This document shows, one piece after another, positions 30,671 to 31,478 of a stretch of 64,000 nt of DNA (position 1 is the stretch's first letter; each line of letters begins with the position of its first letter). Source of the stretch: Escherichia phage vB_EcoM-UFV09; the sequence record MZ291552.2, one strand, 5' to 3'. Below the pieces are notes generated by a model that was not told the origin of the DNA, searched no databases, and saw only the letters and a program-made list of their open reading frames with translations. The position numbers were made by a program, and so were the translations under genes.

Positions 30671-31144
30671 TTATTTGAATGATTTAACGTACTGAATAGA
30701 ACCTTTACTATTCACAAAGGCAATTTTACCATTTTTGTTATACATAGTAGCAGTACGTTGATAGCCATAAGTTTGTTTACCAGATTGATAACCAACTAAT
30801 GCGAAATTATCTTCACCCATTTTATTCTGTTTAGCGCGAATGCGTTCATGACCATGTGCCATAAGAACCTTAGCATCACCAGTTGCAATGGACCGACGAG
30901 TTTTTTCATCTTCAACTGTATTAACAAAGTCGTCAAATGAATCAAATTTAGCATGAGATTTATTATACAGTTTTCCATCTACTGCATAATTATATCCTTG
31001 TACATCCATCTCAACTTCTGTACCATCATCTAATACCGCAGTAATTTTCTGTCCTTTTTTAAATTTCAAAAGATCAGTAAAAGATTCAGCAATAATTTGA
31101 GAATTAATAGCTGCTTCAGTAATAAATTCTTTATACGTTTTCAT
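30671..31144 (-). CDS. Internal-protein-like protein with capsid-targeting-sequence-like N-terminus (MKTYKEFITE), 157 aa
   Basis: N-terminus resembles the T4 IP capsid-targeting sequence (MKTYQEFIAE); locus between vs genes and e as for ipII/ipIII. Confidence 0.55.
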   Translation of the reverse strand: MKTYKEFITEAAINSQIIAESFTDLLKFKKGQKITAVLDDGTEVEMDVQGYNYAVDGKLYNKSHAKFDSFDDFVNTVEDEKTRRSIATGDAKVLMAHGHERIRAKQNKMGEDNFALVGYQSGKQTYGYQRTATMYNKNGKIAFVNSKGSIQYVKSFK

Positions 31145-31160
31145 GTGTATCCTTTAATTT

Positions 31161-31478
31161 TTATTCTTTAGGGAAGTTTTTAGAATATGCATCATAAAGC
31201 TTATTTCCAATACGGCGGAAAACTCTAGCCGCAAAACGATTTTCTGGGTTTTTAATCATGATTTGCATCATATAAGTACCCGCGTCAGAAAGAGCTTCTT
31301 CATAGTACCCGTTAATTTCTTTAAGAGTCCTACGTTTACCACCAGGACCATCAACAGTGATTTTCCATTTACCTGTAGAAGTGCGACTTGGCGGTTCAAC
31401 TTGTTCAATCCAGATATAACCGCCTTCTACACGCTGTCCTGCAACAGATTCTGCAATAAATTCTTTATACGTTTTCAT
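31161..31478 (-). CDS. Internal-protein-like protein with capsid-targeting-sequence-like N-terminus (MKTYKEFIAE), 105 aa
   Basis: As above; basic protein. Confidence 0.55.
   Translation of the reverse strand: MKTYKEFIAESVAGQRVEGGYIWIEQVEPPSRTSTGKWKITVDGPGGKRRTLKEINGYYEEALSDAGTYMMQIMIKNPENRFAARVFRRIGNKLYDAYSKNFPKE

Follow-up and report, generated by a model that had tools for sequence, protein, structure and literature searches.

Ip4 and Ip10, probable injected internal proteins encoded in the ipIII/ipII slot of the T4-like Escherichia phage vB_EcoM-UFV09

The internal proteins of the T4 head have been reviewed as diverse defence proteins that have only their leader in common (PMC3012670). 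Each of the T4 proteins Ip1, Ip2 and Ip3 acts as the inhibitor of a particular GmrSD enzyme and gives no cross-protection (PMC12373910; PMC9391042), with IPII being the inhibitor of GmrSD-ECOR21 and IPIII that of GmrSD-ECOR17 (PMC12373910), and the leader-bearing protein Bas37_0260 inhibits McrBC (bioRxiv 10.1101/2025.11.20.689424). Modular shuffling at the internal-protein locus is attributed by later papers to Repoila et al. 1994. Here we describe two adjacent open reading frames (ORFs) on the minus strand of a 64,000-nucleotide stretch of Escherichia phage vB_EcoM-UFV09 (MZ291552.2), hereafter referred to as the window. They lie at positions 30671–31144 (157 aa; MKTYKEFITEAAINSQ...) and 31161–31478 (105 aa; MKTYKEFIAESVAGQ...) and are separated by a gap of 16 nt. 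Our analysis indicates that both are probably functional genes of a T2/T4-like phage (genus Tequatrovirus), coding for its internal proteins Ip4 and Ip10, that they occupy the slot which holds ipIII, ipII and denV in T4, and that their products most likely serve as injected blockers of a host nuclease or first-line defence. The literature and GenBank already contain both genes under these names, as well as the common leader and the idea of cassette shuffling.

Identity of the two genes and their relation to T4 IPII and IPIII

The two ORFs are intact and begin with MKTYKEFITE (157 aa) and MKTYKEFIAE (105 aa), so that the lengths and N-termini given in the original prediction are exactly those present in the DNA. 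Its placement of the genes at the ipII/ipIII locus is borne out by the flanking genes, that is, vs.8 (29978–30565), the lysozyme gene e (31550–32044) and nudE (32082–32537), which identify the e-proximal internal-protein locus. The resulting order is vs.8-ip4-ip10-e-nudE, the equivalent order in T4 being vs.8-denV-ipII-ipIII-e. The surrounding 1.1 kb (30500–31600) is 100% identical to the corresponding DNA of Escherichia phages vB_EcoM-UFV05/06/10/11 and 94–97% identical to that of numerous further genomes of the genus Tequatrovirus, the same uninterrupted arrangement being present in at least 56 records.

It had likewise been recognized that the protein bodies differ in size and sequence from T4 IPIII (193 aa) and IPII (100 aa), and this is correct. 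The two genes had, however, been viewed as divergent members of the IPII/IPIII families, and here our comparison leads to a different conclusion. BLASTP searches of each protein against T4 IPII and IPIII align the first 11–14 residues (residues 1–13 alone in the case of IPIII; residues 1–14 only for Ip10 and IPII), the exception being Ip4 and IPII, for which the alignment extends over 77 residues with 30% identity (E 4e-6) and begins inside the shared leader. We then have the comparison, using hhalign, of leader-trimmed profiles of 13 leader-bearing families (Ip4, Ip10, IpI, IpII, IpIII, six families from related phages and two Bas37 proteins), in which all pairs comprising Ip4 or Ip10 remained below 7% probability, and the four pairs formed by Ip4 or Ip10 with IPII or IPIII did not exceed 0.7%. 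Since no relationship is evident once the leader is trimmed, Ip4 and Ip10 represent unrelated bodies behind the same leader rather than alleles of IPII or IPIII, and the genes are to be regarded as non-homologous replacements. The similarity of the body past the leader that defines membership in the IPII or the IPIII family is thus lacking in both proteins. The McrBC-inhibitor function of Bas37_0260 was also considered for Ip4 and Ip10 and was rejected: its sequence was retrieved and compared, and the leader alone is in common.

High identity to characterised IPII or IPIII alleles was not found, and what emerged instead is that both proteins are nearly identical to alleles already bearing the names Ip4 and Ip10. 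The 157-aa protein matches Pfam family DUF7412 (PF24183) over its entire length (E 1.7e-95; 317.8 bits with a gathering cutoff of 27; protein residues 1–157 aligned with model positions 1–158 of 158), and this family is carried by all 14 clusters of Ip4 homologues. It also matches phrog_3155, annotated 'internal virion protein' (E 1.6e-101), and is 99.4% identical to the products of T2 ipIV, of AR1 Ip4 and of the PST and SA20RB genes, and likewise to that of an unnamed ORF of RB7. The T2 protein has the same length, and the main substitution relative to both T2 and PP01 is Lys5 for Gln5 within the leader. The ip4 gene is located directly downstream of either e or ip10: in T2 it stands alone at the e-proximal locus, whereas vB_EcoM-UFV09 carries ip10 and ip4. 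Altogether, Ip4 is found in 470 phage records, including copies with ∼68% identity in Klebsiella, Salmonella, Raoultella and Serratia phages.

The 105-aa protein matches phrog_3966 (E 1.4e-33) and is 98% identical to the 'Ip10 internal head protein' of PP01, which is encoded immediately downstream of e, as is ip10 in the window. The ip10 gene products of VR20/VR25 are 70% identical to the 105-aa protein, as is a cluster which in one source bears the name 'Ip10 [Shigella phage SP18]', and for proteins from Enterobacter and Cronobacter phages the value is ∼50%. Ip10 occurs in 189 phage records, and its family is without a Pfam entry. When the Ip10 profile was run exhaustively with HMMER against 1.84 billion representative proteins, two genuine clusters only were retrieved, which makes this a very small family. 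Three giant tandem-repeat proteins, with E-values from 2e-30 to 1e-9, were rejected as homologues because each score is the added-up contribution of many identical repeats; they comprise FAZ1 coiled coils and a ninefold TIG repeat, the latter having only a G-x-W-x-V-x-V-D-x-P-x-G hairpin in common with Ip10. The names ipIV/Ip4 and Ip10 are used in several independent GenBank records, and neither protein is therefore a new variant of the internal proteins, as had been envisaged. Some records label Ip10 as 'IpII' and Ip4 as 'IpIII', apparently according to position (Sf25, MF327009; SH7, KX828711; the UniRef cluster of P0015), and in many others both are listed as 'hypothetical protein'.

The shared leader and the cassette array between e and vs.8

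Both proteins carry the capsid-targeting leader M-K-T-Y/F-x-E-F-I/L-x-E and conform to the consensus M-K-T-Y-[QKN]-E-F-[IL]-[TA]-E derived from 57 proteins, which substantiates the proposal that they are internal-protein-type genes with such a leader. The leaders are encoded on the minus strand by codons 1–10 of ip4 (31115–31144) and of ip10 (31449–31478), and when all six frames of the 64-kb window were scanned, this leader was detected in these two ORFs only. At the DNA level, a 37-nt segment comprising the ribosome-binding site and the start of the leader occurs in exactly two copies in the window, compared with none expected from shuffled sequence. The first copy (TTAAAGGAAACACATGAAAACGTATAAAGAATTTATT; 31455–31491, minus strand) extends from upstream of ip10 into the gene, the same segment preceding ipIII and ipII in T4, and the second (31121–31157, minus strand), which differs from the first by one base, is positioned in the same manner at ip4. 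The ribosome-binding context TTAAAGGA(A/T)ACACATG precedes each gene.

Residues 8–10 of both Ip4 and Ip10 are I-x-E, which agrees with the I/L-x-E motif of the T4 prohead protease gp21, and the T4 record X04567 lists a signal peptide, numbered -10 to -1, that is removed from IpII and IpIII. The predicted mature proteins then comprise residues 11–157 of Ip4 (16.5 kDa; isoelectric point (pI) 9.1) and residues 11–105 of Ip10 (10.9 kDa; pI 9.6), and they are basic like T4 IPII and IPIII. Family alignment and motif scan further reveal a possible second prohead-protease site in Ip4 (I-A-E; codons 18–20 at 31085–31093, minus strand): Glu20 is nearly invariant and the residue at position -2 is I, L or M in every family member. 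The precedent for such a site is IPI, which in T4 and in the homologue encoded in the window contains an I/L-T-E motif at residues 16–19, and for which the mature T4 protein has 76 of 95 residues (PMC3012670). By analogy, Ip4 is perhaps cleaved a second time after Glu20, in which case mature Ip4 would comprise residues 21–157.

The internal-protein genes of a given genome tend to agree in leader residue 5 (Lys, Gln or Asn): it is Lys in both proteins of the window, Gln in both of T4 and of locus L007 from the survey described below, and Lys throughout in loci L013–L015. Such agreement may reflect gene conversion or recombination among the leaders of one genome, an explanation that is confounded by the relatedness of the genomes themselves.

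The boundaries of the two genes can be defined by alignment with T4. Starting from the 3′-end of e, the window runs colinear with T4 through the intergenic region (31479–31549, minus strand; its T4 counterpart is the e-ipIII region) and on through ribosome-binding site and leader codons, until the similarity is lost at about codon 11. The two sequences become similar again at GGGAACA(A/C)CTGGACC (from 30655 downward), ∼16 nt past the stop codon of ip4, within the 3′ junction at 30630–30670 (minus strand), and the T4 equivalent of this sequence is located immediately after the denV stop codon. Ip4 and Ip10 are hence encoded at one of the two internal-protein loci (e to vs.8/denV; trna.4 to 57B) behind T4-like upstream DNA. 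As T4 similarity stops after the leader and is regained past the last gene, the interval from e to vs.8 is an array of exchangeable cargo cassettes. The e-ip10 intergenic region also contains a hairpin with an 8-bp stem (31506–31529), for which the calculated folding energy of -11.5 kcal/mol (z -1.5) is not significant alone.

A survey of 22 T4-like loci from IMG/VR, fetched via the e gene, provides further insight into this array. The interval from e to vs.8 contains one to four leader-bearing genes and, optionally, denV at varying positions; the conserved 37-nt segment is present at the 5′ junction of each cassette, and the leader-trimmed genes fall into 10 unrelated families, one of the loci (L007) having ip10 and ip4 arranged as they are in the window. 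The view that this locus is hyperplastic is thereby confirmed, in agreement with the literature. The e-proximal slot can also be empty, since Bas37/KarlGJung (MZ501089; L056, 8206–8829) has the order vs.8-denV-e with no internal-protein gene next to e. In six genomes (L008–L011, L016 and L025; ∼4482–4767), e is immediately followed by a member of a leader-bearing family of 93 aa, and Bas37_0261 (L056, 17864–18121), a relative of this family according to hhalign (98.8% probability), resides at the ipI locus, which demonstrates directly that cassettes move between the two internal-protein loci. In the window, the second locus harbors an ipI homologue (38645–38929, minus strand; 94 aa) that is located between trna.4 and 57B and is 91% identical to T4 IPI, so that the set of internal proteins comprises Ip1, Ip4 and Ip10 where T4 has Ip1, Ip2 and Ip3.

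In T4, denV, the gene for the pyrimidine-dimer glycosylase endonuclease V, is located between ipII and vs.8. It is absent throughout the 64-kb window, with no copy in 30566–30670, and is present at this locus in some close relatives of the phage (JLBYU22, ESh33 and A2). Given its varied placement inside the e-to-vs.8 array of related genomes, denV behaves like one more movable cassette.

Conservation, predicted structure and likely function

Comparison of Ip4 with its relative in locus L006 yielded 28 synonymous and one non-synonymous substitution, corresponding to a ratio of non-synonymous to synonymous rates (dN/dS) of 0.007, and synonymous to non-synonymous counts of 9:1 and 6:1 were obtained with T2 and PP01, respectively. 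Ip4 is under strong purifying selection. For Ip10, 3–4 synonymous versus two non-synonymous substitutions are too few to decide. These data bear directly on the proposition that the two are genes in decay, or ORFs arisen by chance, which have retained a leader. Such a proposition could appeal to the 'hypothetical protein' that is the sole label in many GenBank records and to the neighboring vs.8, which looks frameshifted relative to T4. Yet full-length conservation in 470 (Ip4) and 189 (Ip10) records already refutes it, and the 28:1 ratio for Ip4, the intact ribosome-binding site before each gene and the compact, confidently predicted fold of Ip10 likewise oppose it; we thus give it practically no credence.

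The alignment of the Ip4 family, with identities ranging from 61 to 99%, contains 49 invariant columns, located in a core at residues 46–139, and the invariant residues include His64, Asp79, His99, Glu111 and Asp112. An AlphaFold2 model of Ip4, of moderate confidence (predicted local distance difference test score (pLDDT) 72; predicted template modeling score (pTM) 0.66), comprises an N-terminal helix followed by β-strands, a three-helix insert and further β-strands. The model of Ip10 (pLDDT 83.6; pTM 0.75) has a β-β-β-α-β-β topology. Searches of solved structures in the Protein Data Bank with single sequences and with profiles of Ip4 and Ip10 gave nothing below E ∼0.1 apart from one match to a designed protein, which was dismissed for want of a significant stretch, and Foldseek comparison with viral predicted structures retrieved only the Ip10 family itself. 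Weak matches to CsgH, curli-inhibitor and filamin families were also discarded, being far below the family cutoffs and at odds with the predicted fold. No recognisable fold could thus be assigned to either protein.

What, then, are these proteins likely to do? With T4 IPII and IPIII, Ip4 and Ip10 have in common their locus, the intergenic DNA upstream together with the ribosome-binding site, a 10-residue leader that ends in I-x-E, and a small and basic mature form, and they differ in having unrelated bodies. They resemble, furthermore, T4 IPI* (the inhibitor of GmrSD-CT596, for which a nuclear magnetic resonance structure has been solved) and Bas37_0260 in being small, leader-bearing and presumably injected. 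The route taken by IPII and IPIII, via the prohead core, gp21 cleavage and injection, is presumed to be the same for Ip4 and Ip10; their function is not transferable, because the bodies are unrelated. Based on T4 biology, ip10 and ip4 would be expressed late, possibly by read-through from late promoters upstream of e, and the leader would carry each precursor into the prohead core. There, gp21 would cut after Glu10 and, for Ip4, perhaps also after Glu20, and the small basic products would stay with the packaged DNA and be injected alongside it. Packaging, processing and co-injection are suggested by the conserved leader and the locus. Once in the cell, each protein may, by analogy, bind and block one specific host nuclease or first-line defence that attacks glucosyl-hydroxymethylcytosine DNA. 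Neutralisation of a host first-line defence appears to us, by the same analogy, the most likely function of both.

One could argue that no specific host target need be invoked, and that Ip4 and Ip10 are mainly structural, that is, abundant basic fillers of the scaffold core which offset the charge of the DNA and assist in its packaging or ejection. Their small size and pI of 9.1–9.6, comparable with T4 IPII and IPIII, would fit such a role, as would the ∼1000 internal-protein molecules embedded in T4 DNA, the lysines of which contact DNA phosphates (PMC3012670), and the lack of a target for 'ip4-10' in GmrSD screens. It is difficult to reconcile, however, with a locus that holds 10 unrelated body families at one to four genes per genome, and with Bas37, in which the e locus is devoid of an internal-protein gene, a state that a structural need should not tolerate. 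Moreover, all leader-bearing proteins with known function are specific anti-restriction factors, and the constraint on the folded core of Ip4 exceeds what a charge filler needs. A mainly structural role is, for these reasons, decidedly improbable.

Several observations weigh against injected blockers of a host nuclease or first-line defence. First, no perfect late-promoter box TATAAATA is located directly upstream of ip10. The nearest such boxes are at 32058–32065 and 32071–32078, upstream of e; a box matching at seven of eight positions (31557–31564) was rejected as the ip10 promoter, as it is no more than chance gives, and a scan for sigma-70 promoters and terminators was uninformative. Second, it is solely from the leader that packaging, cleavage and injection of Ip4 and Ip10 are predicted: neither virion nor injection data for the two proteins were found in the searched literature, and the search for Ip4, Ip10, ipIV and DUF7412 returned nothing functional. 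Third, the original prediction had proposed an assay against type IV restriction systems, and the GmrSD part of this has in fact been published: a 2025 study tested ten ip genes, and for 'ip4-10' (Supplementary Fig. 9) no reproducible GmrSD inhibition was seen (PMC12373910), the panel for these genes being five newly active GmrSD systems besides the CT596, ECOR21 and ECOR17 enzymes, and the 'ip4' and 'ip10' of that study being equated with the proteins in the window by name only. Fourth, T2 is restricted by GmrSD-ECOR17 and by the leaky GmrSD-ECOR21 (PMC12373910), and since Ip4 is the only e-proximal internal protein of T2, Ip4 is evidently not a blocker of these two enzymes. Fifth, with 49 invariant columns at 61–99% identity, the core of Ip4 is unusually invariant for a binder engaged in an arms race.

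Some of these same observations raise the question of whether Ip4 and/or Ip10 could be injected effectors against a target other than a type IV enzyme, be it another early-acting defence or a host process, with Ip4 possibly acting as an enzyme rather than as a stoichiometric binder. Apart from the negative outcome for 'ip4-10' with the GmrSD variants of Supplementary Fig. 9, the conserved Ip4 core with its invariant His64, Asp79, His99, Glu111 and Asp112 and the very low dN/dS would be in line with such a role. So would the distribution of the family: Ip4 is the most frequent of the four e-locus families that were counted (470 records versus 261 for T4-type IpIII, 198 for IpII and 189 for Ip10) and is hence commoner than either T4 allele, and it is present at ∼68% identity in phages of Klebsiella, Salmonella and Serratia. 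On the other hand, the confidence of the Ip4 model is moderate (pLDDT 72), all four leader-bearing proteins that have been characterised act on type IV restriction enzymes, and GmrSD diversity is vast, with part of it covered by the published tests (PMC12373910). We therefore judge a non-type-IV target to be unlikely. A related reading is that Ip4, as a DUF7412 protein, is an injected effector, maybe an enzyme, directed against a different first-line host defence or process and is not a GmrSD binder, and that Ip10, with its orphan fold, is likewise aimed at a new target. In view of the abundance of Ip4 among the four families, its spread over phages of Escherichia, Klebsiella, Salmonella and Serratia, the unusually invariant core with its conserved His, Asp and Glu, the absence of a recognisable fold and the negative outcome for 'ip4' with every GmrSD variant tried, we entertain it as tentative, if somewhat doubtful. 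The preferred reading remains that ip4 and ip10 are functional internal-protein genes with products that most likely block a host nuclease or first-line defence upon injection.

Neighboring genes and implications

The neighboring gene vs.8 (29978–30629, minus strand) looks split when compared with T4. A 33-aa ORF starting with GTG (30528–30629) is 94% identical to the N-terminus of T4 Vs.8, and the main ORF of 195 aa (29978–30565) is in a different frame. This could be due to a frameshift or to an alternative start, and the vs.8 annotations of PP01 and T2 are likewise shorter or fragmentary. Further away, a cluster of 11 tRNA genes (36066–37080, minus strand) includes His, Asn, Tyr and Met tRNAs that are absent from the eight of T4, and is devoid of the homing-endonuclease gene segB by which the T4 cluster is interrupted.

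Among phage proteins, the internal proteins encounter the host cytoplasm first, and all internal proteins with known function disarm a specific modification-dependent nuclease. The positional labels 'IpII' and 'IpIII', or 'hypothetical protein', which Ip4 and Ip10 carry in public records could mislead predictions of host range. Identification of the targets of Ip4 and Ip10 would extend the map that connects injected phage proteins with host defences, and would assist host-range prediction for therapeutic T4-like phages.

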